From Chloroflexota bacterium (GTDB lineage Bacteria; Chloroflexota; Anaerolineae; Anaerolineales; UBA11858): DNA of 64,000 bases. The DNA lies in contig JAUWCZ010000001.1 in NCBI GenBank assembly GCA_030609055.1, forward strand, positions 17,363-81,362, in the 5' to 3' direction. The notes under the pieces were generated by a model. That model did no database searches. It saw only the letters and a list, made by a program, of their open reading frames with translations, and was not told where the DNA came from. The position numbers and the translations under genes are program-made. This document shows positions 1 to 18,777 of this stretch, one piece after another. Position 1 is the stretch's first letter, and every line of letters begins with the position of its first letter.

Positions 1-80
1 ACTAATCCGAGCTGCACCCCATGGTGATCACCAAATAATGACTCGATACACAATCTTTCTCTCTTTGGAAGCAAACCTTG

Positions 81-117
81 AAAAAATAAACCGCTCAACA
101 TCTTCCGTTGGCGGTTT
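81..117 (-). terminator. Rho-independent terminator downstream of the GTPase locus
   Basis: Read on the minus strand: AAACCGCCAAC-GGAAGAT-GTTGAGCGGTTT stem-loop (one bulge) followed by ATTTTTT. Confidence 0.6.
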
Positions 118-183
118 TACTTTGGTTGACCAGAGAACGGTTAGTTAGATCATTTTTTCCTAAACCGGTCTCTCTCCTAAGTT

Positions 184-834: not shown

Positions 835-1454
835 ACTGGGCGGGAGGGTCTATGCGAGCGGTACTCAAATTGACTGTCATGTCGGACAGGGATCTCCCTT
901 AACTCCTTTCCACAATAATGTCGAATATAAAACCTGTAATTTACTCCACCCATCGCCTTTTCAACCACAACACCCCTTTCCAAACGGGGATGAGAACGAA
1001 CAATATCCGGGATGAAATATTGTACATCACCGTTGCAGACCTCACCGGCAACAGAATACTCCGGTTTGGTCATCGCCATAACCTTGCGTGGAGGCATGCC
1101 AACATGTTCCGCAAATAGAGAATAGGCTTTGGTGTCGCTGATACCTTTTCCAAAAATATCTGCAAAAAGATTCCGGTTAAGAATAGCCAGGGTTAACACA
1201 AATATAGCCCCAAAAAAGAAAATTGCTGTAACCAGGCTCTCCATTCTTAGATTTGGCATTAGATCATAATTCAGGAATTTTAATGCGCTGAAAATATACC
1301 CAAGTAAGAAAAACGAGATCAGGATCGATAGCACGATCCACGGCCTAGCCAGGCTGTATTTCCTGAGAATAGCAATAATCCTGATGGCAAAAAACAATCC
1401 AATCGAGAGTATGCCAGCTCCAATGATCACGATGAAAGCATTACTTAATAACAT
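831..1454 (-). CDS. Membrane protein (about 4 TM helices) with a ~110-aa soluble C-terminal domain of unknown function, coupled to the GTPase
   Basis: Hydrophobic N-terminal segments. Its stop overlaps the GTPase start as ATGA at 831-834. Preferred start is ATG 1452-1454 (MLLSNAF), preceded by AAGGACGAG. The ORF-track start at 1538 is probably an over-extension. Confidence 0.6.
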   Translation of the reverse strand: MLLSNAFIVIIGAGILSIGLFFAIRIIAILRKYSLARPWIVLSILISFFLLGYIFSALKFLNYDLMPNLRMESLVTAIFFFGAIFVLTLAILNRNLFADIFGKGISDTKAYSLFAEHVGMPPRKVMAMTKPEYSVAGEVCNGDVQYFIPDIVRSHPRLERGVVVEKAMGGVNYRFYIRHYCGKELREIPVRHDSQFEYRSHRPSRPV

Positions 1455-1741
1455 CAGTCTCGTCCTTTTAGAAATCAATTCTACAATAAAGCAACAAGCA
1501 TGCAAGTCAACACAACAGGATTGATAATTAGGAATCACTTATTTGGGGTGAAACAACAGAAATGTAAAGTATAAGTTACATAACCCAGGTAGTATCCACC
1601 ATAACCATAAATTTTATTCATGAATGTTGTACTTAATTTACGAAATATGCCCTGACATGTCTATCTTATTAGAAAAAAGAGTATCAACAAAAATCAGCTG
1701 AGATGATTGTGTATAATTGAATCAAGTATGTCCGATATCCC

Positions 1742-2803
1742 ATGACTACACCTTGTCAAGTTTGTGGAGAAAACCACCCTTTTATTGCTTCGTACTTGGA
1801 TATTTGTCCAGAGTGTGCTCGGACACCAAGAGGAGTATCAAAAGCGCAAAGTGCGCATATAGCGGCACGAGCTCTGTTTGGGCTGCCGAAGAATCCACCT
1901 CGCACTAAAGATGGTGTAATCTGTAAGCTGTGCGCCTCTCACTGTGAGATTGGAGAGGGAGAGTTGGGATATTGCGGTTTAAGGACGGTCCAGGATGGAG
2001 TGTTTCGCCATTTGGCAGGAACACCCCGGAAGGGGATTTTGCATTGGTACCGGGACCCACTGCCAACGAACTGTGTCGCTGATTGGGTCTGTTCAGGCAG
2101 CCAAAAGTATGGCAAGCATAATCTTGCTGTATTTTATACCAGCTGCACCCTGGATTGTTTATTCTGCCAGAACTGGCACTACCGCAAAGTGGACCCGGAA
2201 GGAAGTGAGGGGATCACAGCTCAAGCTTTAGCCGATTGTGCGACCAGGTTGTCCTATTGTGTATGTTTTTTTGGAGGAGATCCAGCTTCCCAACTGCCCC
2301 ATGCCTTAGCAACAGCCAAATCTCTGGCGGAAAAAGGGGTGGTAGTGTGCTGGGAAACCGCAGGTACCGCCAATCCAAAGTTAATGGATCGAGCAGTTAG
2401 TTATTCGATCCAAACTGGTGGGTGTGTCAAATTTGATCTCAAAGCCCATTCTGAATCGCTTCATAAAACCCTTACAGGTCGCGGTAACAATCAAACGCTG
2501 GAAAACTTTGCCCGGGCGGGTGGAAAATTCCAGGAACGTCCAGACTCGCCGTTAGTGATCGCCAGTACGTTATTAGTGCCTGGATACATTGGTGTGGAAG
2601 AAGTTCGGCGAATCGCGGCGTTCATTGCGGGGGTAAACCGTGATATTCCCTACGCTCTGCTGGGTTTTTCACCCCAATTCCTGATGAACGATTTGCCCCG
2701 AACTTCAGTTGAACATGCCGAAGCGGCATATCAGGCATCAGTCGGCGAGGGACTTACCAATGTCCGTATAGGAAATCGCCATTTGCTCGGATATGAATAT
2801 TAG
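1742..2803 (+). CDS. Radical SAM enzyme (PflA-like activase family, COG1180-type) with N-terminal Cys-rich ribbon
   Basis: CTLDCLFCQNW matches the CxxxCxxC radical-SAM cluster motif. N-terminal CQVC...CPEC and CKLC..HC..GYCG motifs. Confidence 0.75.
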   Translation: MTTPCQVCGENHPFIASYLDICPECARTPRGVSKAQSAHIAARALFGLPKNPPRTKDGVICKLCASHCEIGEGELGYCGLRTVQDGVFRHLAGTPRKGILHWYRDPLPTNCVADWVCSGSQKYGKHNLAVFYTSCTLDCLFCQNWHYRKVDPEGSEGITAQALADCATRLSYCVCFFGGDPASQLPHALATAKSLAEKGVVVCWETAGTANPKLMDRAVSYSIQTGGCVKFDLKAHSESLHKTLTGRGNNQTLENFARAGGKFQERPDSPLVIASTLLVPGYIGVEEVRRIAAFIAGVNRDIPYALLGFSPQFLMNDLPRTSVEHAEAAYQASVGEGLTNVRIGNRHLLGYEY

Positions 2804-2885
2804 TTAAATTATGGATGAGAATTCCATGAAGGATACGATCCGTTATTTTCTACGATTTATCGATCCTTGATGTATAAATTACTAG

Positions 2886-2911
2886 AAAAGACGCTCAAGG
2901 GAGCGCCTTTT
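2886..2911. terminator. Bidirectional hairpin terminator
   Basis: AAAA-GACGCTC-AAGG-GAGCGCC-TTTT, with an A-run and a T-run flanking a GC stem. Confidence 0.45.
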
Positions 2912-2957
2912 CTAGTAGCGGGGCCAGTATTCGAACCTGGCACATCCGGGGTATGAG
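2909..2957 (-). repeat. Degenerate copy of the 3' half of tRNA-fMet (att-like direct repeat)
   Basis: 45/49 nt identical to 13361-13409 in the same orientation, with runs of 19 and 12 identical nt. No matching tRNA 5' half follows. The T-stem closing pair is broken, so it is not a functional tRNA. Confidence 0.8.
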
Positions 2958-3316
2958 ATAGAGTCCTGACCTTATGGGCTTGGATCTTAAGACCTGGCTC
3001 GTATATAACCTTGCGATTTGCAGTTGATCGGAACCCAGCGATTATTAGGAATAATTATCCTACTCGTAAAGAGACAAACTGGCAGTCACATTTGAGATCT
3101 AGGACAGGAGCCCCACTAGAATCACTTACATATTTCTATGTTACACTTGCAGGTTGAATCTGCAAGGCATCTTCTCTTCTACTAAAGTTTTTGAAGCGAT
3201 TAACCATTTGGAACCATACGTCCTAGCTTGCATGGTTGAGTCAGGGAAACAGATTGGTTTGAAGTACTCGAGCAGATTACCAACAATCAATTCGTCTTTT
3301 CTCGAATAAATCATGC

Positions 3317-4030
3317 TTAGATAGATCCCAAAATACTCTCCACCGTATTCTCTAAGTCTTCAAAACTCACCAGTAGAACATCAGGGGAGAACCGAGCTAG
3401 CTCATCGGTTGAAAACGAACTCGACGCTACACTCACCGTGCGGGCGGAGATTGATTTCCCGGCTTCAATATCGGAAGGAGCATCACCAATCGTGACCACA
3501 CGTGTGCGCGTTGGATTCAGCCCATAATAGTTTAGGGACCGGTCTAGTGCCAGCCGGACTAATTCCTGCCTTGAAAAAACCTCATGACCATATGCACCAG
3601 CAGGAAAATACTTCTTAAGACCACTTCTCGCCAATAGTATTTTGGCTGTCGAACCCAGGGTGCCCGTTGCTAAGGCAAGGTATATGTTTTTTCGCTCCAC
3701 AAGGTTATCTAAGAGTTCATTTACACCAGGCAATAAGCGATTCGTGAGATCTTCTGGAAGCGTCTGTTGCATTTGCTCAGTCAACATCAGCTGAACTCGT
3801 TGGAGGTGACGATTGATCTCTTCCTCTGGCACACCCCCTGCTTTACAGATTCTGCGTATTATTTCTTTTTGGGGGAATCCATACCGCTTACTCTTAGGTA
3901 GTTGATCTGGCACATTCCATACTTCCTTCACGACCTTCGCTACACACGCAATATGGTAGTCGAAAACATCAAGCAACGTACCATCGAGATCAAAAATCAA
4001 TAAGGTGTTGATTTCGTTGTTAGGGGACAT
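3317..4030 (-). CDS. HAD-superfamily phosphatase (phosphoglycolate-phosphatase-like)
   Basis: Motif I LIFDLDGTLLD and a C-terminal GDAPSDIEAG motif. Confidence 0.75.
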   Translation of the reverse strand: MSPNNEINTLLIFDLDGTLLDVFDYHIACVAKVVKEVWNVPDQLPKSKRYGFPQKEIIRRICKAGGVPEEEINRHLQRVQLMLTEQMQQTLPEDLTNRLLPGVNELLDNLVERKNIYLALATGTLGSTAKILLARSGLKKYFPAGAYGHEVFSRQELVRLALDRSLNYYGLNPTRTRVVTIGDAPSDIEAGKSISARTVSVASSSFSTDELARFSPDVLLVSFEDLENTVESILGSI

Positions 4031-4078
4031 TATTTACTTTTGATGATGTTATCAGGTTCCACTCACTGCGATTGTTGC

Positions 4079-4963
4079 TTACGCCAAATCCCACAAATCT
4101 TTGGTCTTCTCAAGTGCCTCTTCTAGCTTCTTTATCTTCGCTTCCTCAAGCGGGAGCAGAGGTTTGCGGGGATAGCCAGGATCCATCCCCCGCAATTTCA
4201 AGATCTCATACGCTGTCGGAATCGAGGAACCAATGTGAAGAATATCCCAGAGTATCAATACTCTCTCCTGCCATTCCTTTGCGTCCACCGCTGAGCCAGA
4301 AAGAACAACTGAGTGGAATTTCTGCATGACCTCAGGGAACGGATTTCCTAAGCCGGCGATGCAGCCTCTCACACCCATGGCGAACGCCGGCAGCATGAGG
4401 CTTTCAGATCCGATCACGAAATCAAAGTCTGACCTCTCTATGGTGCGCATGGCCATATATAATTTTCCAATATCAAAACTTGAATCTTTAAGCCCATGAA
4501 GGCCCAGATTAGCCAATCCATTTAACAGCTCCGGTGTTAATGGGTTACCAGTTGTTTTTGGGTTGTCATAGGCATATACAGGAATCGTCACGGCATTAAT
4601 AATCGCCTCAAAGTGCGCCTGGATCGATCGGGAGTCAGGCGAATAATAAAAAGGCGGAACCGCTGCGACAGCGATCGCACCATGTCTTTCCGCATGACGC
4701 GCCAATCGCACAGCGATTGAAGTTGTGATTGCCCCAACATGAGCAATTAGAGGCTTTTTCCTGACCGTAGCAGATGCAATTTCAAATACCATTTCACGTT
4801 CTTCAGGACTCATAAGAGGTCCTGAACCATAGCTTCCACAAACAAACATCCCGTCGACGAATTTCGACCAGAACTCAAGCAGTACTTCGAAGCGTTTATT
4901 ATCAATTTGCCCTTCCTCATTAAATGGTGTTATGATCGGTGGAAAGATACCTTTAACCTTCAT
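4079..4963 (-). CDS. DapA/NanA-family class-I aldolase (dihydrodipicolinate synthase-like lyase)
   Basis: N-terminus GIFPPIITPFNEEGQID and GSYGSGPLMSPEERE (family GTTGE-type motif); 294 aa. GGGAGA Shine-Dalgarno before the ATG. Confidence 0.7.
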   Translation of the reverse strand: MKVKGIFPPIITPFNEEGQIDNKRFEVLLEFWSKFVDGMFVCGSYGSGPLMSPEEREMVFEIASATVRKKPLIAHVGAITTSIAVRLARHAERHGAIAVAAVPPFYYSPDSRSIQAHFEAIINAVTIPVYAYDNPKTTGNPLTPELLNGLANLGLHGLKDSSFDIGKLYMAMRTIERSDFDFVIGSESLMLPAFAMGVRGCIAGLGNPFPEVMQKFHSVVLSGSAVDAKEWQERVLILWDILHIGSSIPTAYEILKLRGMDPGYPRKPLLPLEEAKIKKLEEALEKTKDLWDLA

Positions 4964-5101
4964 CGAATGTCTCCCTGTCTCTCAGGTTTCATATAAAGTT
5001 ATTAATAAATAATCGATTTTGAATCTAAAACCAAGTGTGTGAAATCTCTCGTGAACCTTGCATTCAATCTGTCATATTGTTTTAATCGCCTTAGTGATGA
5101 C

Positions 5102-5755
5102 TCAAGAAAGTTCCCGTGCTTCTCTAGCAATCCTCAACCATTCGGAAGCTGTAGAAGTTATCATTTCAAACTCACCTTTTTTAACCAACTCTGGATCCAC
5201 AAGGTTTGATGCAGCAGCCACGCCTACTGCACCAGCAACAAACCACTCTGCGAGGTTGTCTGCAGACACACCGCCGACAGCGACCAAGGGTATTTGCTTC
5301 ATAGGTGCATTTACTGCCTTTAGATATTCCGGTCCTGCTGGCATCGCCGGGAATAATTTAACAGCATCAGAGCCCGACTCCCATGCGAGTAAACACTCTG
5401 TTGGTGTGAATCCCCCAGAGAAACTTAACCGACCATAACGCTTGGTCATGGTAATCACTTCGGGACAAACCGTGGGTGAAACGATGAAATCTGCCCCCGC
5501 GAGAATCGCTAAACGTGCCGATGGTGGATCAAGCACAGTACCTGCCCCTATCAAGATATCCTCACCATATTCATCATGGATCCTTGAAATGTAATCAACT
5601 GCATGCGGGGTAACCAGAGACACTTCAATAATATCAATACCACCCTTGAGTAAGGCTTCAATTGTTGGATTGATATCCTCCTGTGAGTCAATCCGGACAA
5701 TCGCCATTACACCAACATCGAAGAAGTGCTGCAACTTTTCAGACATGTGTTTCAT
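5102..5755 (-). CDS. eda: KDPG/KHG aldolase family protein (Eda-like)
   Basis: AIVRIDSQED...LLKGGIDIIEVSL... pattern, 217 aa, typical Eda length. GGAG 8 nt upstream of the ATG. Confidence 0.7.
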   Translation of the reverse strand: MKHMSEKLQHFFDVGVMAIVRIDSQEDINPTIEALLKGGIDIIEVSLVTPHAVDYISRIHDEYGEDILIGAGTVLDPPSARLAILAGADFIVSPTVCPEVITMTKRYGRLSFSGGFTPTECLLAWESGSDAVKLFPAMPAGPEYLKAVNAPMKQIPLVAVGGVSADNLAEWFVAGAVGVAAASNLVDPELVKKGEFEMITSTASEWLRIAREARELS

Positions 5756-5821
5756 TTTTCATACTCCATTCCACACAAAATGTGGGGATACGAAGGTTTT
5801 AATTAAAATCATCAGATCGAT

Positions 5822-6403
5822 TTATTTTATACAGACTGTTACATACAGATCGGCATCCAATCCAAGTTCCCATTTATGTCCTGTCAATTCATTGGAAATA
5901 TGATCAGGTAAAAAGAAATCACTAAACAATTCTACTGCCAGATTATGAATATTCTCTGATAATGTCTTAATGTGCCAACGGACAGGCAATTGTCGAGTGG
6001 GGATGCATATAACCGCATGACTGCCTGGCTTGAGCACGCGACAACATTCAGATAGAATCTTTTCTGGATCCTCCGCGATGTGGATGGTATTGACCAGACA
6101 TATCCCTGTAAGTGTATTCGATCCCAAGGGTAAAAATGCCCCATCTCCTTGAATTCGCTTAATAACCTTTTCCTCGATGCACTCTGTCGAAGCTTGCAAA
6201 GAAACCAAATTGATATCGTAAGCGAGGACTTCAATTTCTTCGTTAACCGACTCCATCAATGCTGCACCAATTCCCATTTCGCTCCCCAAATCCATCACCC
6301 ATCCCGGCTGAAAAATCTTTGCTGCCCATTGATATATTGAGGCGTGCATCAATATATCAGGGCGCTTCTGGATCTGATTCCAAAGAGGAACAATCTCTAT
6401 CAT
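5822..6403 (-). CDS. Class-I SAM-dependent methyltransferase-fold protein
   Basis: Motif I-like VMDLGSEMGIG, post-I AYDIN, and LKPGSHAVI (Methyltransf_11-type layout). Confidence 0.6.
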   Translation of the reverse strand: MIEIVPLWNQIQKRPDILMHASIYQWAAKIFQPGWVMDLGSEMGIGAALMESVNEEIEVLAYDINLVSLQASTECIEEKVIKRIQGDGAFLPLGSNTLTGICLVNTIHIAEDPEKILSECCRVLKPGSHAVICIPTRQLPVRWHIKTLSENIHNLAVELFSDFFLPDHISNELTGHKWELGLDADLYVTVCIK

Positions 6404-6428
6404 TCGTCAACCTGCTTGTAGTGTGACC

Positions 6429-7358
6429 TCAGGCTTGATTAGCGGCATCAAAATCCAACCACCGCGAAGGATTTGTCACAAAAACCTGCTTAATTAAATC
6501 ATCATCCCAGCCATACTTCTGAAGCCGCGGTATAAACTTTTTAATGATATATTCAAATCCAGGACCTCCACCATATCCTTTTAAATATGACCGACGCCCC
6601 ATGTCTCCGGAAATCAATATCCTTTCCGCATGCCCGGAATCTATGAGACGGTTCAACATCAAAATACGCTCTTCATCTGTTGCATATTTAATTTTCGAAG
6701 GACCATCGAACATTACATTCGCACCCCGATCCGCGATCGAATCGAGATATCCAAAATCAAGATTCTGATCCAGATGCGCTATCCCAACCTTCTGTAGATT
6801 TACACCTTCTTGCTCTAACATATCCAATTGCTCATGCGCCATCGTCCCAAGAGTCGTATGCGTAATGATGGGACATCCGGTAATCTTCTGAGTCCGACCT
6901 GCCGCAAGAGTGTAACGCTCCTCTATCGGTCGGATGAACCCATAGCTAGTCCCCGTCTTGACGATACCTGCTCGAGCTTCTGTGTCGTCCATACCCTCTT
7001 GGATGTCTTTCAGGCAGAGATTCGTCATTTCCTCGACCGTCATCGCGCTTAGAACATCATCCGCGTAATCACCACGATTAAATCCTGTAATTGCTACGAT
7101 ATGAACTGGTGTTTTTTTAGCTACCAGAAGAAGGTCCCGGGCATCTCGCCCATAATCAATTGCCGTGGCATCGACAATCGTCCGTCCTCCAGCTTGATGG
7201 AAGAGATCAAGTTCGACAAGTATCTTGGGGATACTATCTAGTACATAATCGGAATCTTCTTGTATCCTCCACAAAGGCGGCCGGGTAAGGATGTGCTCGT
7301 GGGCATAGGTCAGGCCAGCATCAGATGGACCAATCTGTTCCAATACAGTTTGAATCAT
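6429..7358 (-). CDS. Phosphotriesterase-family (COG1735) amidohydrolase, probable phospho-sugar lactonase
   Basis: N-terminal GLTYAHEHIL (HxH metal ligands), 309 aa. GGAGTG Shine-Dalgarno. Confidence 0.75.
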   Translation of the reverse strand: MIQTVLEQIGPSDAGLTYAHEHILTRPPLWRIQEDSDYVLDSIPKILVELDLFHQAGGRTIVDATAIDYGRDARDLLLVAKKTPVHIVAITGFNRGDYADDVLSAMTVEEMTNLCLKDIQEGMDDTEARAGIVKTGTSYGFIRPIEERYTLAAGRTQKITGCPIITHTTLGTMAHEQLDMLEQEGVNLQKVGIAHLDQNLDFGYLDSIADRGANVMFDGPSKIKYATDEERILMLNRLIDSGHAERILISGDMGRRSYLKGYGGGPGFEYIIKKFIPRLQKYGWDDDLIKQVFVTNPSRWLDFDAANQA

Positions 7359-7481
7359 TTTGCTATCACTCCGTGTTTATTTGGAAAAGGGGCATGATTC
7401 CAAGTTTTACTATCACTTATTGGATCATGCCCCTTTAGGATGCAGAGACTGCAGAATTAAAATCAATTTTCAGAGTTACGA

Positions 7482-8885
7482 TCAGTCGCCAAAGGTTTCC
7501 ACAACGGGGGTTTTCTTTGACTGGCTTCGCATTAGCCAGAAGATGGTGACTAACACAACAGCACCGATGATGATCGAAGCGATCCCATAGGTCCCAAAAC
7601 CTTCTACTCGAGACCCACCGATCAGGTTGATGATCCAGAAGACAGGAGCCCACAGAATATAATCACCACCGCCGAAGTTCAAACCAGTTCCAGCAAAGAA
7701 TTCAGCCTGGAGTGGGTAGAGCAATAGCGCTGTTACATCAACGACAATGCCCATGATGGCTCCAGCTACGATTGCACCCACCCAACCGCCATGCTTATCA
7801 CCAAAAACACCTGCGAGGGCGCCATCAAAGAAGAAAAAGATGGGACCAGGGAAGATGATGACCGACATACCGAGGGCTAACTGGACAAGCGTAAAAACGA
7901 CCATAGCCGCAAAGCAAGACAGGAAACCCAGGATGACACCGGTAGGTGAGTACTGGAAGAAAAGTGGTGAATCAAGGGCTGGTTGTGTACCCGGCAGGAT
8001 TCGATTTGCAATTCCTTCAAAGGCTGGGATCATTGCCGCCAGGAACATGCGGACACCAAACAGTACGACAGCAACACCTGCTGCAAAACCAAACCCCTGC
8101 ATGATTAGCCATATAATCCAGTGCTGTCCTCCACTTAACCCCGATACCGCTTCTGCACCAGCGACCACGCCGATCAAAATATAGAGGATCGGGATCAGCA
8201 GAGCAAGCAGGACTGTATAGTCTGTTAACATGGATAAAATGCCGGGGAGTTCAATTTCGCTGCTTTTCTTCGAGGTTACAATTTTCCCTGCTAACGCGCC
8301 AGCTGGCAGGTCCATGGTTTGAAGGTGACCAAGTGTGAACATCCCATCCGTTAATGGCTGTGTGAAGGGACGAGCAATGGCGGGCATGATTGTCCAGAAG
8401 AGTGCGGTTATGACAGTGGCAAAGGCGATTAGCCCGGTTCCAGTCAAACCCAGTGCTGTACTCCCCATGATGGTCGCAATCGATGTGTTAAACAACATGA
8501 TATGTCCAGTAAGGAACACATTCTTAAAAGTAGGCATTGGAAGGATCCGTACCAGGACGAGGTGCAGTACGAATGCACAAACAAATGCAATCGAAATCTG
8601 GACTGCAAAAGTCTGCATCGCCACACCAAAGGGTCCGAAGCAGTCAGGCAACACTCCTGTAACGCCAAAGGCGTTGTTCAGTAGACTGGTGATCGGTAAC
8701 AGCGAACCAAGGAATACGCCAATCCCTGCGTTGAGGATAACAATACCTACCACAGTTTTTACCGTACCTTCGAGAACTTCATCCGCATCCCTTTTTTGCA
8801 TAAGAAGTCCAAAAAGCGCAATCAGGCCCAGGAAAATCGGCGCCTGGATAAACACCTCTTGGATAAGAAAATTTATGACTTGCAT
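7482..8885 (-). CDS. ulaA: PTS EIIC, ascorbate-type (UlaA/SgaT family)
   Basis: 467-aa polytopic protein. The LTGHIM motif and overall pattern match UlaA. GAGGAGAG Shine-Dalgarno. Confidence 0.8.
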   Translation of the reverse strand: MQVINFLIQEVFIQAPIFLGLIALFGLLMQKRDADEVLEGTVKTVVGIVILNAGIGVFLGSLLPITSLLNNAFGVTGVLPDCFGPFGVAMQTFAVQISIAFVCAFVLHLVLVRILPMPTFKNVFLTGHIMLFNTSIATIMGSTALGLTGTGLIAFATVITALFWTIMPAIARPFTQPLTDGMFTLGHLQTMDLPAGALAGKIVTSKKSSEIELPGILSMLTDYTVLLALLIPILYILIGVVAGAEAVSGLSGGQHWIIWLIMQGFGFAAGVAVVLFGVRMFLAAMIPAFEGIANRILPGTQPALDSPLFFQYSPTGVILGFLSCFAAMVVFTLVQLALGMSVIIFPGPIFFFFDGALAGVFGDKHGGWVGAIVAGAIMGIVVDVTALLLYPLQAEFFAGTGLNFGGGDYILWAPVFWIINLIGGSRVEGFGTYGIASIIIGAVVLVTIFWLMRSQSKKTPVVETFGD

Positions 8886-8950
8886 TTTATTCTCTCCTCT
8901 TGATCTAAAGGTTCTTGGATATAAACAGTGAATATATTGTTTTTGTTATC

Positions 8951-9271
8951 TTATTCCTCCTTTACTTCGATTCTGCCTGTCTCTGCAAATTCTGTAAAAT
9001 ATGGACCCAGCAGTTCGTTTAACTCATCCTTATCAATGAAGGACTTCACCGACAGAACTGGAGTACCCCTGATCTTTCCTACACGAGGTGCCAAGTGATC
9101 CTGGGCGACGACAATATCTGATTCATGCCCTTTCGCAGTCCCAGCATCCGCTGCCACGATTGATGTCTTAACTCCATATTCCCTGGCGATCTTTTCGATG
9201 ATTGTCTTTGCCAGAAGACTGCTGCCTAATCCACATCCACACACTGTCACCACTCTAATTCTTCTTGCCAT
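8951..9271 (-). CDS. ulaB: PTS EIIB (UlaB/SgaB family)
   Basis: RIRVVTVCGCGLGSSLL active-site Cys loop, 106 aa. GAGGAGG Shine-Dalgarno. Confidence 0.8.
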   Translation of the reverse strand: MARRIRVVTVCGCGLGSSLLAKTIIEKIAREYGVKTSIVAADAGTAKGHESDIVVAQDHLAPRVGKIRGTPVLSVKSFIDKDELNELLGPYFTEFAETGRIEVKEE

Positions 9272-9367
9272 AAAATCCTCCTCTGCAGATAAGTTTCTAA
9301 TATTCTAGCCATGATGGTGGAATATTGTTTCCTAAATTCACTAAAATTCGCTTGAAAATCAATAATT

Positions 9368-10324
9368 TCACTCTCTAAAAGTCAATGCCCGGGCGGGATT
9401 ATTTGTAAAAATGTCCAAAATTACATCCTCTGCGAAGCCCTGATCCTGCATGCGTTTTACAAACTGGTCGGGGACATAGGCTAAACCCGGGCCTCCTCCA
9501 TAAGAGATAAAATAACTTTTCCTTGCCATATCCCCACCCCATACAACTTGCTTGCCATACCCAGCATCCACCATACCTCGTACGAGGTTGATGAAGGTGG
9601 ATTCGGGAAAATACTTGACCCTCGAAGGCGTATCGTAGAGTAGATAAGCGCCGGTTTCCGCGATTTTGATATGGGTATAGAGATCTGGGTTTCGGTCCAT
9701 GTGACCTACTGTGAAATATTGTGGTTCCACCCCAAAAGACTTAATTAACTCGACTTGTTCAACCCCCATAGTCCCCCTTTCGGTGTGGGATGAAATTGGC
9801 GCACCCGTCTCCTTATGTGCAATTGCCGCTGCTTTGAAAATTCGTTCGTCCTCCGTTGAGATATGTTGATATGGAGTGGTGACCTTGATGACCCCCGCTC
9901 TCGCCTTAACACGATCAATATTCGGACCGTTATAGCTATTTGCGTCCATCCCTTGATTGATTTCTTCAATGAAAATCTCAGCCATTTGTTCAGCTGTATA
10001 AAACGAGCGCCAATGCGAGTCAAGATAGAATTCAGATTTCTGGATACCAGTGGATGCAATAACATGTAAACCCGTTCTCTCTGCTATTTCAATCATAGCG
10101 CGTGGGTTTCTCCCGCATCCGATGGGACTCATTTCGACCATCGCCTTGCCACCAGCCTGCATAAAAAGCTCAACCTCTTGAGTAACTTTCTCGATATCAT
10201 CAATCTTGAAGTCGGGATGCTTAAGTACGATCAAGTCACGGTCCATGATCAAATGACCGTGAGCATCAGTAAATCCCAGATCTTCAGGAGAGACCGATCC
10301 TAAAATTGTCCGAATTTCAGTCAT
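9368..10324 (-). CDS. Second phosphotriesterase-family (COG1735) amidohydrolase
   Basis: GFTDAHGHLI HxH motif, 318 aa. Its start overlaps the upstream FAD gene stop by 8 nt. Confidence 0.75.
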   Translation of the reverse strand: MTEIRTILGSVSPEDLGFTDAHGHLIMDRDLIVLKHPDFKIDDIEKVTQEVELFMQAGGKAMVEMSPIGCGRNPRAMIEIAERTGLHVIASTGIQKSEFYLDSHWRSFYTAEQMAEIFIEEINQGMDANSYNGPNIDRVKARAGVIKVTTPYQHISTEDERIFKAAAIAHKETGAPISSHTERGTMGVEQVELIKSFGVEPQYFTVGHMDRNPDLYTHIKIAETGAYLLYDTPSRVKYFPESTFINLVRGMVDAGYGKQVVWGGDMARKSYFISYGGGPGLAYVPDQFVKRMQDQGFAEDVILDIFTNNPARALTFRE

Positions 10325-11645
10325 TTTTCAACTCACTTATTTCTCTGGGTATCGGCTTGAATAAAGTATCCTGATCGAGTAATGCGCTCCGTAGTTGGGA
10401 GAGCTCAATATGACGCGGTTGGACATCCTCCGAGAGTGCTATCATTGCGGCTACTCCCGCGGCTTCTCCCATGGCCATACATTGAGCCGAATTTCTGGCT
10501 GAGGCCTGAGCCTCGTGGGTGGCACTTAAGCACCTTCCGGCAACGATGAGATTATCTACTTCCGTTGGTAACAATGCTCGGTAGGGAATCTGGTAGTAGC
10601 CATCCCCTTCGACATATTTCCAGTGGACGTCTTTACCAGCGTGATGATCCTCGATCGGGGCTGCACAACAACAGATCGCATCTTCAAATTGTCGACCTGC
10701 AACCACATCTTCCTCAGTGAGGACATATTCTCCAATCAATCGACGTGTCTCTCTAACACCGATATAGCTTGCAGTCATCGCCAGGTAAGCGTCCTCAAAA
10801 CCCTGATGTTCGTTAATGAGAAATTGGGCATACTCATGGGCTTGGTGTCTACCTTCAATTTCTGCCTTCGTAAGAGCAAATGGGTCAATTGCATTAACAT
10901 TTCGAACCCGGGTTAAGTTAGCATGTACAAAACCTGGATGCGGTGTGGGATGTATGGATCCTCCAATCCGTGTAAGTTTATATTTTCCGTTTACCTCTGC
11001 GTCCACCATTAGCTTGGTGCGCTCAGCTTGTGATAAGGAAAAAGCACGTTCATTATCCACGTTGCCCATGTAAAAAATAGTGCTGAGGGATTGAACCGGT
11101 AGCTCGTCCACCCCCGCCAATTCGAGTGAGGCACCTGCGCGCGCAGCGACGTCTGCATCGCCCGTCGCATCAATAACACAATCTGCTTTCACCTTTCTTA
11201 AACCAGCCTTATTTGAAACCAGCACGCTATCTATATTGTTTTCGTCCATTAAAACTTCGGGCACAAAGGAATGGTAAAGTAGCTCTGCTCCCGCTTCGAT
11301 AACCATCTCTTCCAGGAGTATCTTTAACATCTCAAGATCATACGTAACCCCCGTTCCTGCACCAAAGGTATTGGGTCGTAAAAATGCCGCATTCCGGTCA
11401 AATAGCCGCTCAACGATTTCATAGGCAATCCCACCTATAACGCGTGATGTTCGATTTCCTGGACTGAAGAAGCCATAAAAGGTATCCACCCCCATTACTG
11501 TACGGCTTCCACCCAGAGCGTTTTGTGATTCGATGAGCAGCACCTTGACACCCTTGCGCGCGGCAGAAATGGCTGCAAGTGTCCCTGCTGCTCCACCACC
11601 AATCACTGCGAGGTCTGTTTCAAAGAGCAGCTCGTATTTACTCAT
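10317..11645 (-). CDS. FAD-dependent oxidoreductase (FAD_oxidored/GIDA-like Rossmann N-terminus)
   Basis: DLAVIGGGAAGTLAAISAARKG dinucleotide-binding motif. Preferred start is ATG 11643-11645 (MSKYELL), which overlaps the EIIA stop by 8 nt. Confidence 0.7.
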   Translation of the reverse strand: MSKYELLFETDLAVIGGGAAGTLAAISAARKGVKVLLIESQNALGGSRTVMGVDTFYGFFSPGNRTSRVIGGIAYEIVERLFDRNAAFLRPNTFGAGTGVTYDLEMLKILLEEMVIEAGAELLYHSFVPEVLMDENNIDSVLVSNKAGLRKVKADCVIDATGDADVAARAGASLELAGVDELPVQSLSTIFYMGNVDNERAFSLSQAERTKLMVDAEVNGKYKLTRIGGSIHPTPHPGFVHANLTRVRNVNAIDPFALTKAEIEGRHQAHEYAQFLINEHQGFEDAYLAMTASYIGVRETRRLIGEYVLTEEDVVAGRQFEDAICCCAAPIEDHHAGKDVHWKYVEGDGYYQIPYRALLPTEVDNLIVAGRCLSATHEAQASARNSAQCMAMGEAAGVAAMIALSEDVQPRHIELSQLRSALLDQDTLFKPIPREISELKND

Positions 11646-12126
11646 CGTTGAGCTGCTCTGCCTTATCAAAGATTGAATAGATCTCCTCAACATTCATAGC
11701 TTTCAAGAGTTCTTCAACAAGATAATCAGTTGACAGAACCTCGGCGAGTGTTTGCAGTGCTCTAACATGGATATGTTTATTATTAGCAGCCAGACCAAAT
11801 AACAAGATAACTGGATCATAATCAGGATGTCCAAAGTCAAGTGGAGGATTCAATCTCACTAAACTTAGCCCAGTTTCCAATGCGCCATCCTCTGGTCGAG
11901 CATGCGGCAGAGCGATCTGGGGAGCGATCACAATATAAGGGCCAAGTTCCTCGGCGGTTTTTATCATCGCCTCGATATAGCGAGGTTCAACAATCTGTGT
12001 ATCGACGAGAGATTTGCCAGAGATGCGGATCGCCTCTCGCCAGTCCGATGCTTCTACATCAAGAGCAATCCGCTCAGCAGGGATCAGCTCCTTTAGTGAT
12101 GGCAGTGCTTCTTCAGGCTTAGACAT
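11638..12126 (-). CDS. ulaC: PTS EIIA (EIIA-2 / UlaC type)
   Basis: IALPHARPEDG phospho-His loop, 162 aa. Confidence 0.75.
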   Translation of the reverse strand: MSKPEEALPSLKELIPAERIALDVEASDWREAIRISGKSLVDTQIVEPRYIEAMIKTAEELGPYIVIAPQIALPHARPEDGALETGLSLVRLNPPLDFGHPDYDPVILLFGLAANNKHIHVRALQTLAEVLSTDYLVEELLKAMNVEEIYSIFDKAEQLNDE

Positions 12127-12184
12127 GTGTGTATTCCATTCGTTTTATGTTTCCTTAACACTCGTAAACTAAGCCATACTCTTT

Positions 12185-12970
12185 CTAAGGGCTGTAACCC
12201 ATATTCTTCGAAATCTCCATCCCTGCTTGTTGGATCCATCCAATGAGCTTATGATCTTGATCGATCGAGTTTAGTCTTTCGGAAGGACCGCTTATGCTGA
12301 TAGCAGCCACAACACTTCCGCTAAAATCATATATCTGAACCGCCAAACATCGCACGTCATGTTCATGCTCACCATCGTCCTTTGAAAAACCTTGGGATCT
12401 GATTTGCGCAAGATGCTTCATGAGCGTTTCGACGTCAGTGATGGTTTTTCCTGTATACTCAATCATCCCATTTTCTTGATAATAAGCACGCACAATATCT
12501 TGGTCCTGATAAGCCAGCATCACTTTACCAAGTCCCGTGCAGTATGCAGGTGCACGACCACCAACATGTGAAGACATCATTCCGATTGCATGGAGAGTAT
12601 GAAACTTATCAAGATAAACAACTTCCATCTGATCCAAGATAGCTAAATGGACAGTCTCAGAGGTTAGATCACGTAGTTTCTTAAGTTCTGGTCGCGCCTG
12701 TTGACGAATATCAACGCTATCAAGGTAAGTACTTGCCAATTCAAGGCAGGCGAGTCCGAGCTTATATTCGTCAGTGTTGTCATCCTTTTGAATAAAGTTA
12801 TAGCTTGACAACGTCGCTAAGATACGGAATACCGTACTACTGCTGATGGAAATCTCCCGGCTGATGGCAGTCAATGTCCTTGGGATTCCGTCAGAAAGCA
12901 ATTTCAGCACGTTTATTGTTCGGTCGATAACTCGGATATTGTACCGGGTAATTTTGTTTTCCACGACCAA
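12185..12970 (-). CDS. IclR-family transcriptional regulator
   Basis: N-terminal wHTH (IDRTINVLKLL...ISREISISSSTVFRIL) followed by an IclR effector domain pattern. 261 aa, TTG start. Confidence 0.75.
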   Translation of the reverse strand: MVVENKITRYNIRVIDRTINVLKLLSDGIPRTLTAISREISISSSTVFRILATLSSYNFIQKDDNTDEYKLGLACLELASTYLDSVDIRQQARPELKKLRDLTSETVHLAILDQMEVVYLDKFHTLHAIGMMSSHVGGRAPAYCTGLGKVMLAYQDQDIVRAYYQENGMIEYTGKTITDVETLMKHLAQIRSQGFSKDDGEHEHDVRCLAVQIYDFSGSVVAAISISGPSERLNSIDQDHKLIGWIQQAGMEISKNMGYSP

Positions 12971-13034
12971 ACCTTAACAAACCTATTGTTTAGAACTTAT
13001 AATTTGAAATCTTAGAAATTCAGCGAAGGCGCGT

Positions 13035-13051
13035 TTTTCATAGAATGAAAA
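13035..13051. promoter_or_regulatory. Perfect 7-3-7 palindrome, candidate IclR operator
   Basis: TTTTCAT-AGA-ATGAAAA, lying between the candidate promoter and the iclR start. Confidence 0.35.
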
Positions 13052-13070
13052 GTCTTTTTAGTTACTAATA

Positions 13071-13100
13071 ACTATACAGCATATAGTCCTAATGTGTCAA
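13071..13100 (-). promoter_or_regulatory. Candidate sigma-70-type promoter of the iclR-PTS operon
   Basis: Minus-strand TTGACA-N18-TATAGT. Confidence 0.4.
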
Positions 13101-13334
13101 TGTTATATAAATCATTCTATTGAAAAAAAATCGTTTTTCTTTTGGATTCATCCCCTGGGTGTAAAAGCGAAAAACTGCGAAAGTAAGGTTTAAAAGGCAT
13201 CTTTATTCAAGATGTCATTCTGGAGATTCGAACACAGGTTCCAGAGGTTAATGGTTTTAACCCCTTAGATCATTACCCGCAGGGTCTTTAGTCCAATTCT
13301 TGGTTCACCCCTGTTGAAAAGTCGTCTTAAATGT

Positions 13335-13356
13335 AAAAAGCGCCCTCTCAGGCGCT
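13335..13356 (-). terminator. Rho-independent terminator after tRNA-fMet
   Basis: Minus-strand AGCGCC-TGAGAG-GGCGCT followed by TTTTT. Confidence 0.6.
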
Positions 13357-13367
13357 TTGATTTCTAG

Positions 13368-13439
13368 TAGCGGGGCCAGGATTCGAACCTGGGACCTCCG
13401 GGTTATGAGCCCGACGAGCTGCCACTGCTCTACCCCGCG
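13368..13439 (-). tRNA. tRNA-Met(CAT), initiator type
   Basis: CGCGGGGTAGAGCAGTGGCAGCTCGTCGGGCTCATAACCCGGAGGTCCCAGGTTCGAATCCTGGCCCCGCTA folds as a cloverleaf. It has a position 1:72 mismatch and GGG/CCC in the anticodon stem, as in bacterial initiator tRNAs. No CCA is encoded. Confidence 0.9.
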
Positions 13440-13456
13440 TTAATAGTAGGGAGGCG

Positions 13457-13485
13457 ATTATAGCATGGGGGGTAAACCAGGTCAA
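13457..13485 (-). promoter_or_regulatory. Promoter of tRNA-fMet
   Basis: Minus-strand TTGACC-N17-TATAAT ending about 17 nt upstream of the tRNA 5' end. Confidence 0.65.
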
Positions 13486-13859
13486 GGTTTGGTGTCAAAA
13501 AACAGTTCCCACCAGACCCGGAACAAGTTCTGGGGCGGGGGAATAGGTGTTGGTATCAATGTCGGGACCTGAGGTGTGCCTTCTACAGGGATCACAGCAA
13601 CCCGGTGGTCCCCCTCCCGGATCCATTTGCGGTGCGCATATGCCCATTCCTCCACCGCAAGATCTGATTCTGCCCGCACAACCTCGGTCGCCAGAGCGCG
13701 GGTAGTCGCTGTCAAGGCGGCAATAGTCAATTGGGACTGATCATATTCTGCGGAGAGCCGGTTTAAATCGGAGATTTGCCCTCCGAAGACAATCATCCAG
13801 ACAATCACCAGCAGCAGAAAACCCAGTAAAAAAATCGTTTTCCCTCTTTTCAGGTCCAT
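13482..13859 (-). CDS. Septum-formation-initiator-like protein (FtsB/DivIC family)
   Basis: One N-terminal TM helix, a coiled-coil segment, then EEWAYAHRKWIREGDHRVAVIP, which resembles the family C-terminal motif. Confidence 0.55.
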   Translation of the reverse strand: MDLKRGKTIFLLGFLLLVIVWMIVFGGQISDLNRLSAEYDQSQLTIAALTATTRALATEVVRAESDLAVEEWAYAHRKWIREGDHRVAVIPVEGTPQVPTLIPTPIPPPQNLFRVWWELFFDTKP

Positions 13860-13954
13860 ATCTTTATCTTATCTCACAACCATCCGGGACGCAATCACTT
13901 CCCCATCCACCCAGTCAGCTGCTTATTAACCATTAATCGGATCTCGTCTCCTTT

Positions 13955-13987
13955 ATAAAAAAAGTCTCTAACCCGGGGTTAGAGACT
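13955..13987 (-). terminator. Rho-independent terminator after tRNA-Leu
   Basis: Minus-strand AGTCTCTAACC...GGTTAGAGACT hairpin followed by TTTTTTTAT. Confidence 0.7.
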
Positions 13988-13994
13988 GGATCTG

Positions 13995-14079
13995 TGCCGA
14001 AGGTGGGAGTCGAACCCACATGGGCGTAAAGCCCACTACGCCCTGAACGTAGCGCGTCTGCCTGTTCCGCCACTTCGGC
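13995..14079 (-). tRNA. tRNA-Leu(CAG), class II with long variable arm
   Basis: GCCGAAGTGGCGGAACAGGCAGACGCGCTACGTTCAGGGCGTAGTGGGCTTTACGCCCATGTGGGTTCGACTCCCACCTTCGGCA. The anticodon stem is CTACG/CGTAG with loop TTCAGGG. Confidence 0.9.
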
Positions 14080-14104
14080 AAATAAAAATCTTCTTGCAGT
14101 CGGT

Positions 14105-14132
14105 ATTTTACCCTGAGATTAGGTTTTGTCAA
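14105..14132 (-). promoter_or_regulatory. Promoter of tRNA-Leu
   Basis: Minus-strand TTGACA-N16-TAAAAT. Confidence 0.6.
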
Positions 14133-14245
14133 CACTCCCCCCCGATCCCACGGCAGAAATCATTATTCTTCAGCTTTCCTGACCTTCCTGTTAGACGATT
14201 GATGATTGTTTTCCGCTTAGGGAACCCGTGCTATAATTCAGGCAG

Positions 14246-16306
14246 GTGTGTTCTATGAGCATGTTTCAAATCGGACTGAATCCAGCCAATCTACCCCTGA
14301 GATACTTGGGATATACCCTCCTGATCATCCTGATCTGTTCTGCTGCCCTGGCGAAAGTGTTCCGGAAATGGCAGCAAGGCAGATTCCCGCAGGGATTCCG
14401 CATGATCCAGGGTTTGATTGGAGTGACCTTCCTGCGATTGTTGGTTTTCCTAATCACCTACTTCGCCTGGAAAAAGGATCCGGTTCTTTCACCCTCCCTA
14501 CTGGTTCTTGAGCAAGCTTCCTTTGTGATAGGCTTGATGTTAATTCTCTGGTTGTGGTCTTTCCCGGAGCCCAGCCGGAATGCAGATACCGCAGTTTTAA
14601 CTTTGATTTCTATTATCTCTCTATTAATCATCCTGCAAACTTTGTTTCTCCCTTCCTTACTGGAGGGATTTACTGGATCCTTCCTTTTCTGGCAGGTCCT
14701 CTCCATTCTTCTGCTGGTTGTTGGGTGTGTTTTGATCTTCATCCGCAAACCAAATTTCTGGATCTACGGACTTTTTATGGGAGGATTTCTCACCCTCGGA
14801 TCCATTTTAACTCTGATGAGTTCCAGTGTGGATCCGCTCCACCTGGCACAGCTGGCTGCTTATCCCTTGCTGCTGCTATTGGGGGAGCGATTTCCCATCG
14901 GAGTTTCTCTCCTTCAGGAGGGTGCCGATGAGGAGGATGAACTCCAGCGGCGAAGTGCCAGCGTGGATTACCGGACCCTGAAGATTGTCCAAGCGCTGTT
15001 TGATGAAAAGGAACCGGGAGATATCATTTTAAAGATCGCCCAAGCTACATCATATCTGATCCTGGCCGATCTCGCTCTGGTGATTGACACACCGGATGAA
15101 CATGGAAAAATCCGCATCATCGGTGGGTATGATTTAATCCGCGAGGAATCTCTTCAGGCGCATACAATGGAGAGTAAAAGCGTACCCCTTCTTTCCGATT
15201 ACATTCAGCGGGGTAAAATGCTCCACATCCCTGCCAGCAGCACTTCTCGCGACTTATCCCATCTTTCCAAAATACTCCAGCTGACCAAACCGGGACACTT
15301 GCTGGCCTCCCCGGTTCATATTCCCGGCGCAAATAAAACCATCGGCGTGGTTCTATTTTCCCCTTTTTCCAACCGTCCCTGGACTAAAGAAGATCAGGAT
15401 TATTTAAGTTTGCTTTGTCGGTTATATGTGGCTGCCTTTAATTTCCGCCTGGCAAGCCAAAAAGAAGAACCCGATCAGGTTAAGAATACCATCCGTGATT
15501 TGTCTTCCCAATTGACTAAGCTTACCCAGGATAAACAACAACTTAAAGATGAAATAGTGCTGCTATCCAAGGAACACCAAAATCTTCTCTTGGATCAGGA
15601 TTCTCTCAGAACCAAATATAATCAGCTGATGGTAAGGGGAAACGCCCTCCATCGTCATCTCGAGATGCTGGTTGATTTGTCGAAAAAGGAATCCACGGAA
15701 GCCTTACGGAAGTATATCGCTGTGATCGAAAAAGAAGTCGAGCCCATCGGTGAACCTCTGATATCCGAAGCGGTAGTGGAAGAAAAAACCGAGGACAAGG
15801 AACCTGAGGTTCTACCGGATAAGATAGATCCAGCGAGTAAAAGAGGTGCTAAAATTGAAGAAGCGATCCAAACCTGCCTGGAGAATGCTGACACGCTGAT
15901 AAAGGAAAAGAAAATCAAAACTAAACTTGATCTACCAGATGATCCTCCCTTACTGCAAATGAATCACGCGTTATTCCAGGAAATTTTCTCCTTTTTAGTT
16001 TCCAATGCTGTAGAGGAAACCAACCCCAAAGGAGAAATCCTCATCCGAACCCAAATCTACGAGGAAGACCAGACCCAACACTTTGCACATATCAAAATCA
16101 CCGATCAGGGAGATGGATACTTCCCGGATGAAATTGCAGTGGTATTAAATGATCACCTGACTGCAGAAGAGCAGGAAAAACTGACTCAGGTGATGACTAA
16201 TCTATACGTCACAAAGAACCTGGTTGAAAATGAAGGCGGGAGAATGTGGGTTGAAAGCAAACCAGGGGAAGGGACAATCGTAAGTTTGCTGTTAGCTTTC
16301 CAATAG
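14246..16306 (+). CDS. Multi-TM sensor protein with GAF-like region, coiled coil and C-terminal HATPase_c domain (atypical histidine kinase)
   Basis: About 7 N-terminal TM segments. N-box LVSNAVEET, G1 DQGDG and a GEGT G2-like motif. No canonical HisKA H-box. The start is uncertain (GTG 14246 or ATG 14255/14261). Confidence 0.65.
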   Translation: MCSMSMFQIGLNPANLPLRYLGYTLLIILICSAALAKVFRKWQQGRFPQGFRMIQGLIGVTFLRLLVFLITYFAWKKDPVLSPSLLVLEQASFVIGLMLILWLWSFPEPSRNADTAVLTLISIISLLIILQTLFLPSLLEGFTGSFLFWQVLSILLLVVGCVLIFIRKPNFWIYGLFMGGFLTLGSILTLMSSSVDPLHLAQLAAYPLLLLLGERFPIGVSLLQEGADEEDELQRRSASVDYRTLKIVQALFDEKEPGDIILKIAQATSYLILADLALVIDTPDEHGKIRIIGGYDLIREESLQAHTMESKSVPLLSDYIQRGKMLHIPASSTSRDLSHLSKILQLTKPGHLLASPVHIPGANKTIGVVLFSPFSNRPWTKEDQDYLSLLCRLYVAAFNFRLASQKEEPDQVKNTIRDLSSQLTKLTQDKQQLKDEIVLLSKEHQNLLLDQDSLRTKYNQLMVRGNALHRHLEMLVDLSKKESTEALRKYIAVIEKEVEPIGEPLISEAVVEEKTEDKEPEVLPDKIDPASKRGAKIEEAIQTCLENADTLIKEKKIKTKLDLPDDPPLLQMNHALFQEIFSFLVSNAVEETNPKGEILIRTQIYEEDQTQHFAHIKITDQGDGYFPDEIAVVLNDHLTAEEQEKLTQVMTNLYVTKNLVENEGGRMWVESKPGEGTIVSLLLAFQ

Positions 16307-16503
16307 GAAAAATCCCTTGCTGACAAAGGTCACTCTGGTACAGTTCTTGCTACCGTACTTCACAGATCACACTGGCAGGGTAATAGCTCCACGTATACCG
16401 GACATCAGGTTGAAGGTGGACCGGATCAACGGATTTATACTCCGGGATAGTGGTAGGACACCTCCAAAAATGGGGGCTGGCTAGGAAATGGAAATTCCAA
16501 AAT

Positions 16504-17586: not shown

Positions 17587-17658
17587 TGAGATAGATGGAG
17601 TGGAGAGTAAAAAGTCTGATTGTAGAGATTGGATGATGAGATTGTGTGAGGAAGAGCT

Positions 17659-18756: not shown

Positions 18757-18777
18757 CCCAAGGGGGGAATTTCCAAA

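Follow-up and report, generated by a model that had tools for sequence, protein, structure and literature searches.

Gene content of the locus

We analyzed a 64-kb stretch of a contig from an Anaerolineales bacterium of the phylum Chloroflexota (hereafter the window, i.e., the whole stretch of DNA under study), in which a cluster of phosphotransferase system (PTS) and sugar catabolism genes lies between an intact initiator tRNA-Met gene (tRNA-fMet) and a same-orientation copy of the 3′ half of this tRNA. An initial annotation had proposed that the cluster is an immobilized metabolic island left by site-specific integration into the tRNA gene. Between the two copies, 11 co-directional genes fill positions 3317-12970 on the minus strand. 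Starting from the tRNA side, Pfam assigned them to IclR (12185-12970), EIIA (EIIA_2, 11638-12126), an FAD oxidoreductase (FAD_oxidored, 10317-11693), a lactonase-like protein of the PTE family (9368-10324), PTS IIB (8951-9271), EIIC-GAT of the Asc/Gat type (7482-8885), a second PTE-family protein (6429-7358), a methyltransferase (5822-6403), a KDPG-type aldolase (5102-5755), a DHDPS-family lyase (4079-4963), and a HAD phosphatase (3317-4030). The mechanical open reading frame (ORF) of the FAD oxidoreductase, at 458 amino acids (aa), shares 56 nt with the EIIA gene; on identical contigs, gene callers place the start later, giving 442 aa and an overlap of 8 nt (L100), and the true start is probably near 11645.

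No strong terminator was found within the 11-gene run, and a strong promoter-like site, TTGACA-18-TATAGT, precedes IclR (13071-13100, minus strand). The co-directional genes may thus be transcribed together, but the initial description of everything between the repeats as one operon is too strong. The genes form a conserved 9.85-kb module (3251-13101, minus strand), beginning with the first bases of the promoter-like site, and junction DNA of about 293 nt (2958-3250) and 259 nt (13102-13360) flanks it.

The PTS belongs to the ascorbate (Asc/Ula/Sga) family, as EIIC-GAT was matched at E = 8.5e-81, IIB (PF02302) at 2.4e-11, and IIA (PF00359) at 5.2e-35. For both PTE paralogs, the best matches in the PDB were 3pnz and 3msr/3ovg, followed by PHP of Escherichia coli (1bf6). 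We take 3pnz (Listeria Lmo2620) and 3msr/3ovg (Mycoplasma MS53_0025) to be phospho-sugar lactonases. This gene content suggests that the ascorbate-family PTS takes up and phosphorylates a sugar acid or lactone. In the predicted downstream steps, regulated by IclR, the PTE-family enzymes would hydrolyze a phospho-lactone, and oxidation and aldol cleavage would follow. A tblastn search with E. coli and Bacillus subtilis queries found neither enzyme I (EI) nor HPr genes in the window, so the function of the PTS depends on genes outside it. The combination of EIIC-GAT, IIB, and EIIA_2 with 3pnz/3msr/3ovg-like enzymes resembles ascorbate-family PTS operons with PTE-family lactonases; unlike them, the module adds the FAD oxidoreductase, the methyltransferase, two aldolase-type enzymes, and the HAD phosphatase, and it carries two PTE paralogs. 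Our search of the literature on PTS in Anaerolineae returned nothing usable.

A repeat of the initiator tRNA 3′ half bounds the module

The intact tRNA-fMet (CAT anticodon) lies at 13367-13439 on the minus strand, as called by ARAGORN, and Rfam scored it at 63 bits (13368-13439). Its sequence carries the hallmarks of an initiator: the C1xU72 mismatch, the A11:U24 pair, and three G-C pairs (GGG/CCC) closing the anticodon stem. The longest direct repeat within positions 1-20000 joins 13361-13409, inside this gene and its flank, to 2909-2957. The two copies have the same orientation and are identical at 45 of their 49 nt (92%), with exact runs of 19 and 12 nt; they comprise the last 43 nt of the tRNA, from the anticodon loop to the discriminator (2915-2957 in the distal copy, minus strand), and 6 nt of flank. 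When the tRNA was compared with the whole window by BLAST, 2915-2957 was found at E = 2e-10, and nothing else notable besides the gene itself. The repeat begins at C32, and the point where the similarity breaks off is precisely the anticodon loop's 5′ edge (CTCATA|). In the distal copy, a G53-A61 mismatch breaks the T stem, and neither ARAGORN nor Rfam calls it as a tRNA. Even at permissive thresholds, Rfam returned over both junctions just two tRNAs, tRNA-fMet and the neighboring tRNA-Leu(CAG) (13994-14079, minus strand; ARAGORN, Rfam 50 bits), plus noise. The repeat search, ARAGORN, and Rfam thus bear out the repeat that the initial annotation had described, with its abrupt end at the anticodon loop and its broken T stem, and the geometry fits a pair of attachment (att) sites at the anticodon-loop sublocation, i.e., an attL-type junction at the intact gene and an attR-type scar at the distal copy.

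Both junctions occur also in independent assemblies (L001 from Logan, L002 and L100 from ENA) and in a diverged sister lineage (L099, L114, and L115). Because of this recurrence, the structure is real and not an assembly artifact. Four short Logan contigs with an identical IclR gene (L103, L105, L106, and L107) all start about 430 nt upstream of IclR, at a point within the duplicated tRNA segment; breaks made by assemblers at the 49-nt repeat would produce this pattern.

Terminators stand at both copies. The intrinsic terminator directly after the intact tRNA (13337-13358, minus strand) differs in stem and spacing from the terminators that follow the tRNA in relatives. At the other end, a bidirectional hairpin (2880-2917) separates the scar from a radical-SAM gene (1742-2803, plus strand). 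In the relative L087, the 45 nt after the intact tRNA-fMet, which include no tRNA bases, find their closest counterpart anywhere in the window at 2886-2911 (24/26), beside the scar, which fits a displaced native 3′ end. Such likenesses are supportive only, since hairpins are under common constraints and turn up again at other intergenic sites, the type of the window in L093 and a second type (type A) twice in L095. The type A hairpin directly follows the intact tRNA-fMet in L085, L092, and L095, and in L091 it follows a 19-nt tRNA fragment. The best window match to this post-tRNA hairpin of the relatives is at 88-117 (L002:6148-6177), where 27 of 30 nt are identical to the post-tRNA-fMet terminators of L092 and L095. 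This hairpin, which lies at the far edge of the variable zone described below, next to a MarR gene, may descend from the ancestral flank of the tRNA or else belong to a recurrent terminator family. L090 has a type A hairpin in the same arrangement (433-469), and the second copy of L095 is at 772-805. A decayed tRNA fragment suspected after the type A terminator of L090 was rejected, as the same hairpin-like sequence is present in L095 without tRNA similarity.

Junction DNA and search for a recombinase

The DNA between the repeat copies and the module is non-coding and lineage-specific on both sides. On the tRNA side (13102-13336), where an integrase gene would be expected, homology to two other copies of the module (L110 and L108) stops at 13101. 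On the distal side (2958-3250), the window and L099 are only about 62% identical, and the adjacent coding DNA is 92-99% identical. Neither 2958-3316 nor 12971-13366 contains an ORF of at least 80 aa, and their six-frame fragments returned noise only from Pfam at E ≤ 10, with no recognizable remnant of an integrase. All 11 genes of the module belong to other Pfam families. The initial description of non-coding ends with neither integrase nor excisionase holds, and the Pfam search gave no trace of the decayed integrase that the initial annotation had proposed to look for. A T-arm-like motif, GGAGATTCGAACACAGG..GGTTAATGG, occurs in tRNA orientation at 13213-13255, about 115 nt downstream of the tRNA. 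As a tRNA fragment it is not significant (57 of 1,000 shuffles reach its score), and it may be either an older, more decayed fragment or chance.

Sequence composition

The composition was compared with 64 kb of host sequence only. Positions 3001-13000 are the most deviant 10-kb segment in tetranucleotide usage, with a correlation of r = 0.80 (about 0.93-0.95 for most segments). The distance in relative synonymous codon usage is 0.267 for the island and exceeds those of all 26 control gene blocks of equal size (maximum 0.199, median 0.169). Thus, the comparison that the initial annotation had suggested does distinguish the island from its flanks, in codon and tetranucleotide usage though not in GC content.

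The tRNA-fMet locus in related genomes

A histidine-kinase search of metagenomes identified 13 related loci, and a search for radical-SAM homologs added L003. In the relatives that reach far enough, the order is LCP, histidine kinase, tRNA-Leu, DivIC-like gene, and tRNA-fMet. This tRNA-side backbone is common to 10 related metagenomic loci, none of which contains the island genes. The tRNA-fMet is 100% identical to that of the window in L003, L086, L087, L090, L091, and L093, and the DNA homology of the relatives to the window ends at its 3′ end. Beyond the tRNA, almost every relative has genes of its own: a heliorhodopsin gene directly downstream in L085 (203-1060, Pfam E = 6e-102), an aldo-keto reductase with an Fe-S domain in L086, PRAI and PfkB genes in L092 and L095, a multicopper oxidase, a glyoxalase, an esterase, an SDR, and an L086-type reductase in L093, TetR and a ydhR-like gene in L091, and an ABC cluster in L003. 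No recombinase was found among the ORFs tested after the tRNA in these relatives. Furthermore, no relative was found with the same gene order but without the repeat, an arrangement that the initial annotation had named as contrary to its proposal.

On the far side, a backbone of MarR (68-75% aa identity) and an ABC exporter (82%) is common to the window strain (L002), L086, L090, and L093, and DNA homology ends near window position 1-8. The two backbones lie 13.4 kb apart in the window, as compared with 1.6 kb for L086, 3.9 kb for L090, and 6.3 kb for L093. The PTS island thus makes up the 10.4 kb next to the tRNA within a larger plasticity zone. This zone also includes the radical-SAM gene, identified by Pfam, which, judging from the contexts of its homologs, lies outside the conserved backbone; the gene and its two neighbors are themselves variable among relatives. 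Between the MarR edge and the radical-SAM gene (184-1538) are a gene of the Ras-like small GTPase type (216 aa on L001 and L002) and a gene of 207-235 aa with no Pfam match; a fragment of the GTPase-like gene is also found at L095:1900-2013.

A patchwork emerges when L099 is aligned to the window, with about 60-70% identity before 1825, 99% at 1825-2924, about 62% at 2925-3315, and 92-95% in the HAD gene. The 99% stretch covers most of the radical-SAM gene and the terminator, which suggests that this segment was recently exchanged by homologous recombination between two otherwise diverged lineages.

A second kind of scar was observed in L003 (15593-15784) and L091 (1710-1887), where 17-19 nt of the tRNA-fMet 3′ end, from the T loop onward, are repeated about 165 nt downstream of the intact gene and come with a terminator of their own. 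L003 and L091 have homologous spacers between gene and copy, including conserved blocks such as TCGCCTGATCCAT and, next to the repeat, CTCGCTC; Rfam has no match for this spacer. The scar may be what is left of a deleted island, or else a small element. With the anticodon-loop scar of the window and L099 and the T-loop scar of L003 and L091, two sublocations of one tRNA have been hit in the clade.

The module in other genomic contexts

Apart from a gap between 5895 and 5593, the module is 82-84% identical in DNA (window 13101-5895 and 5593-3251) to L110, from another Anaerolineales population of the same study. The homologous block extends from the -35 hexamer of the IclR promoter to 66 nt beyond the HAD stop codon. 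L110 has lost the methyltransferase gene's 3′ end together with the 5′ part of the aldolase gene (L110:10080-10770). The module is there adjoined by genes for a SorC-like regulator and an E1 dehydrogenase on one side and by a small ORF, tRNA-Pro, and RpiB on the other; neither tRNA-fMet nor a bounding repeat surrounds it. The tRNA-Pro(GGG) of L110 (13978-14052) lies about 1 kb past the HAD gene, with its 3′ end towards the module. It was considered as an insertion site and rejected, since no tRNA-Pro repeat bounds this copy. L108 offers another context, with an Exo_endo_phos gene upstream, and in L116 (7217-7984; GCA_044344285.1) the HAD end adjoins an IS3-like OrfA (..KRRYTTEQI..YYRWRKEY..), recognized by eye. 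The module is thus found in three contexts other than that of the window. The initial annotation had supposed that PTS systems are uncommon in this lineage; this module, at least, occurs in other Anaerolineales MAGs as well. The IclR protein is identical to an NCBI protein of an Anaerolineales MAG (metagenome-assembled genome), with one matching contig from GCA_023134595.1. Only 32 protein clusters matched the HAD protein at E ≤ 1e-40, and from this number we judge the module to be rare. The cargo is a discrete, mobile module, and what sets the window lineage apart is its junction DNA at 2958-3250 and 13102-13360.

Age and decay of the distal copy

The sister lineage carries the same junction, and its HAD and radical-SAM proteins are 82% and 95% identical to those of the window. 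The scar differs from the intact tRNA by four mismatches in the window, three in the strain L001, and nine in L099. Across 44 aligned positions of the 3′ half, 33 are unchanged in both scars, two are changed in the window only, seven in L099 only, and two differently in both; no derived change is shared. This indicates that the copy was exact when it was made and then decayed independently in each lineage. As the distal copy decays neutrally, the term immobilized, used in the initial annotation, is reasonable.

The same data bear on another explanation of the distal copy, which we consider rather unlikely: a complete second tRNA-fMet gene that was afterwards disrupted by an insertion of 55 nt and by decay, with no need for an integrase. 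Such a gene could have come from a tandem duplication or from a Campbell-type homologous crossover with circular DNA carrying a whole tRNA-fMet and the module, and this origin would explain why the integrase is missing. What speaks for it is a weak stretch resembling the tRNA 5′ half at about 3013-3044, 55 nt beyond the fragment and at the homologous position in L099, where MAFFT places the 5′ half unaided; only 1 of 300 shuffles reaches its score when a match in either lineage is counted. Against this, 72 of 300 shuffles reach the average score of the two lineages, and the single-sequence tests are not significant (543 and 95 of 2,000). Moreover, the 5′-like stretch has nine shared derived differences in 30 positions, as compared with 0 of 44 in the 3′ half. 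If there is any homology, the stretch must have been old by the time the 3′ half was duplicated, and one duplication of an intact gene cannot have produced both. The similarity breaks exactly at the loop edge in both lineages, and the relatives carry a single tRNA-fMet at the locus, with no second gene in any of them. We therefore keep the half-site reading, since the mismatch in age does not fit a duplicated complete gene. The initial annotation had stated that a 5′ tRNA half next to 2957 would speak for a decayed second gene; the only such stretch is this weak, older one, 55 nt away.

Use of the anticodon loop as an att site by viral elements

A degenerate version of the tRNA-fMet 3′ half matched 83 contigs of IMG/VR, several of which begin or end exactly at TCATAACCCG, and these ends probably mark att repeats. 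In eight of them, the adjacent ORF encodes a large serine recombinase of 480-516 aa with Resolvase, Recombinase, and Zn_ribbon_recom domains; five start at TCATAACCCG (L136, L160, L162, L176, and L189) and three end there (L138, L164, and L187). Because serine recombinases adjoin it, the anticodon loop of tRNA-fMet is an att site used by recombinase-bearing elements. In the viral contigs the recombinase gene directly follows the tRNA; in the window, the same position is taken by the 259 nt of anonymous DNA.

Origin of the island

Taken together, these observations are best explained by an origin through site-specific integration, the element being now a degenerate metabolic island, and to this reading we assign a probability of about 0.6. 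An element with the PTS/sugar-lactone module would have entered the resident initiator tRNA gene at its anticodon loop by site-specific recombination, before the lineages of the window and of L099 split. It would have supplied a replacement 3′ half with its own terminator, the 5′ part of 13367-13439 being resident, so that the tRNA stayed intact. The native 3′ half (2909-2957) and the native terminator (2880-2914) would have been shifted 10.4 kb downstream, where the displaced half, functionless, would have gathered substitutions in each lineage on its own. The place of the recombinase module would be beside the tRNA; it would have been deleted later or never carried in cis, leaving an island that is degenerate and probably fixed. 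A recombinase, of either the tyrosine or the large serine kind, would have made the junctions.

Several observations weigh against this reading. No recombinase gene or detectable remnant is present in the island or its junction DNA, and no inverted-repeat core adjoins the distal crossover point. The GC content of the island does not differ from that of the rest of the window (45.3% and 45.8%; 0.45 and 0.46 at third codon positions). Constraints common to all hairpins exaggerate the likeness of the terminators, and hairpins of a similar kind are found elsewhere at these loci. All relatives of the cargo are Anaerolineales, so the donor may be close, or the module may have moved within the genome. 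The exact 43-nt half of this lineage has no match in IMG/VR. As to the empty site by which the initial annotation had proposed to check its claim, the island is absent from all 10 syntenic relatives, but a tRNA-fMet joined to the radical-SAM flank was found neither among radical-SAM homologs at 95, 83, 79, 77, 74, and 71% identity nor in 80 loci of GTDB species representatives, where the radical-SAM identity is 65% or less; in the closest relatives, other genes lie between the radical-SAM gene and the tRNA. What stands of the proposed immobilized, tRNA-integrated island is thus the geometry of the repeat, the absence of the island from relatives, its composition, and the lack of a recombinase; site-specific integration itself is inferred.

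It is also unlikely, in our judgment, that the module arrived by a process that is not site-specific (illegitimate recombination, insertion sequence [IS] transposition, or homologous replacement via the backbones), with the tRNA copy as a by-product of local duplication. The whole MarR-to-tRNA interval turns over in the relatives, mostly without any tRNA fragment, and the patchwork of identity with L099 (99%, 62%, and 92-95%) is typical of homologous recombination; in addition, the module of L116 lies beside the IS3-like OrfA, and no integrase was seen anywhere. These points are countered by the repeat itself, which is in direct orientation, was exact when formed, and has its boundary at a canonical att sublocation that recombinase-bearing elements also use. 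Moreover, neither IS ends nor target-site duplications flank the module in the window.

A more speculative extension, which we regard as improbable, is that the tRNA-fMet 3′ flank in this Anaerolineales clade is a serial capture site, where integrase-less cassettes are inserted by a recombinase acting in trans. If so, the cassettes would range from about 0.17 kb (L003 and L091) to 10 kb (window), two sublocations would be in use, i.e., the anticodon loop (window and L099) and the T loop (L003 and L091), and with each event the tRNA end and terminator of the one before would move outward. On this view, the PTS module would not be a dead island but a cassette that can be mobilized in trans. Lastly, chance similarity or a chimeric assembly, for which only the general risk of metagenome-assembled sequence speaks, is practically negligible and already refuted, given the E value of 2e-10 against the whole window and the presence of both junctions in independent assemblies of several samples and in the sister lineage.

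Comparison with known islands and significance

In Islander-type searches, the features that define an island are an intact tRNA, a 3′ fragment displaced from it, and an integrase. Williams reportedly classed tRNA-gene-integrated islands and prophages by att sublocation in 2002. The window island shares with Islander-type islands the intact tRNA gene at one boundary, the same-orientation copy at the other, running from a canonical sublocation, the anticodon loop, to the 3′ end, a cargo that none of the 10 syntenic relatives carries, and atypical codon and oligonucleotide usage. Unlike them, it has no integrase gene, tyrosine or serine, inside the element, nor an excisionase or a detectable remnant of either; it is small, its distal att site is decayed, and its GC content, also at third codon positions, is like that of the rest of the window.

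A closer counterpart within the phylum is given by the ssrA islands of Dehalococcoides, which are arranged in tandem and bounded by 20-bp repeats of the ssrA 3′ end; 16 of 31 have a serine-recombinase module, and the 15 without it were proposed to be cis-mobilizable or fixed (PMC3146451). The likeness consists of the pile-up downstream of one small-RNA gene in Chloroflexota, the direct repeats of its 3′ end, and the strain-specific content, and the ssrA-type repeat of about 20 nt at the T-loop sublocation has a counterpart in the relatives L003 and L091. The window island is not a member of this genomic island family, which is characterized by ssrA, the 20-bp repeat, and the DsiB/DsiA module (PMC3146451): its target is tRNA-fMet, its repeat of 43-49 nt starts at the anticodon loop, its cargo is a PTS catabolic module and not reductive dehalogenases, and no DsiB-type serine recombinase module was found in any locus examined.

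The island also resembles the cis-mobilizable elements (CIMEs) of streptococcal ICE (integrative and conjugative element) families, which have att-type flanks and lack recombination and transfer genes (PMC3146451, PMC5704250). It differs from CIMEs in that no cognate ICE or integrative mobilizable element of the same att specificity is known for the window lineage; the serine-recombinase elements found at this sublocation in IMG/VR go with other tRNA-fMet sequences. Mobilization in the present day is doubtful because the distal repeat has 4 mismatches in 49 nt and decays neutrally.

If the proposed origin is right, an uncultured Anaerolineales lineage would have gained a complete, regulated, PTS-dependent pathway for a sugar acid or lactone as one unit. 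The DNA right after the initiator tRNA gene is a hot spot of gene turnover in this clade, and when the gene content of MAGs is read, the accessory metabolism encoded here is to be taken as locus-specific and as variable among strains or species. The locus would add, beyond the ssrA islands of Dehalococcoides, a Chloroflexota example of integrase-less islands bounded by fragments of small-RNA genes, involving no new mechanism.

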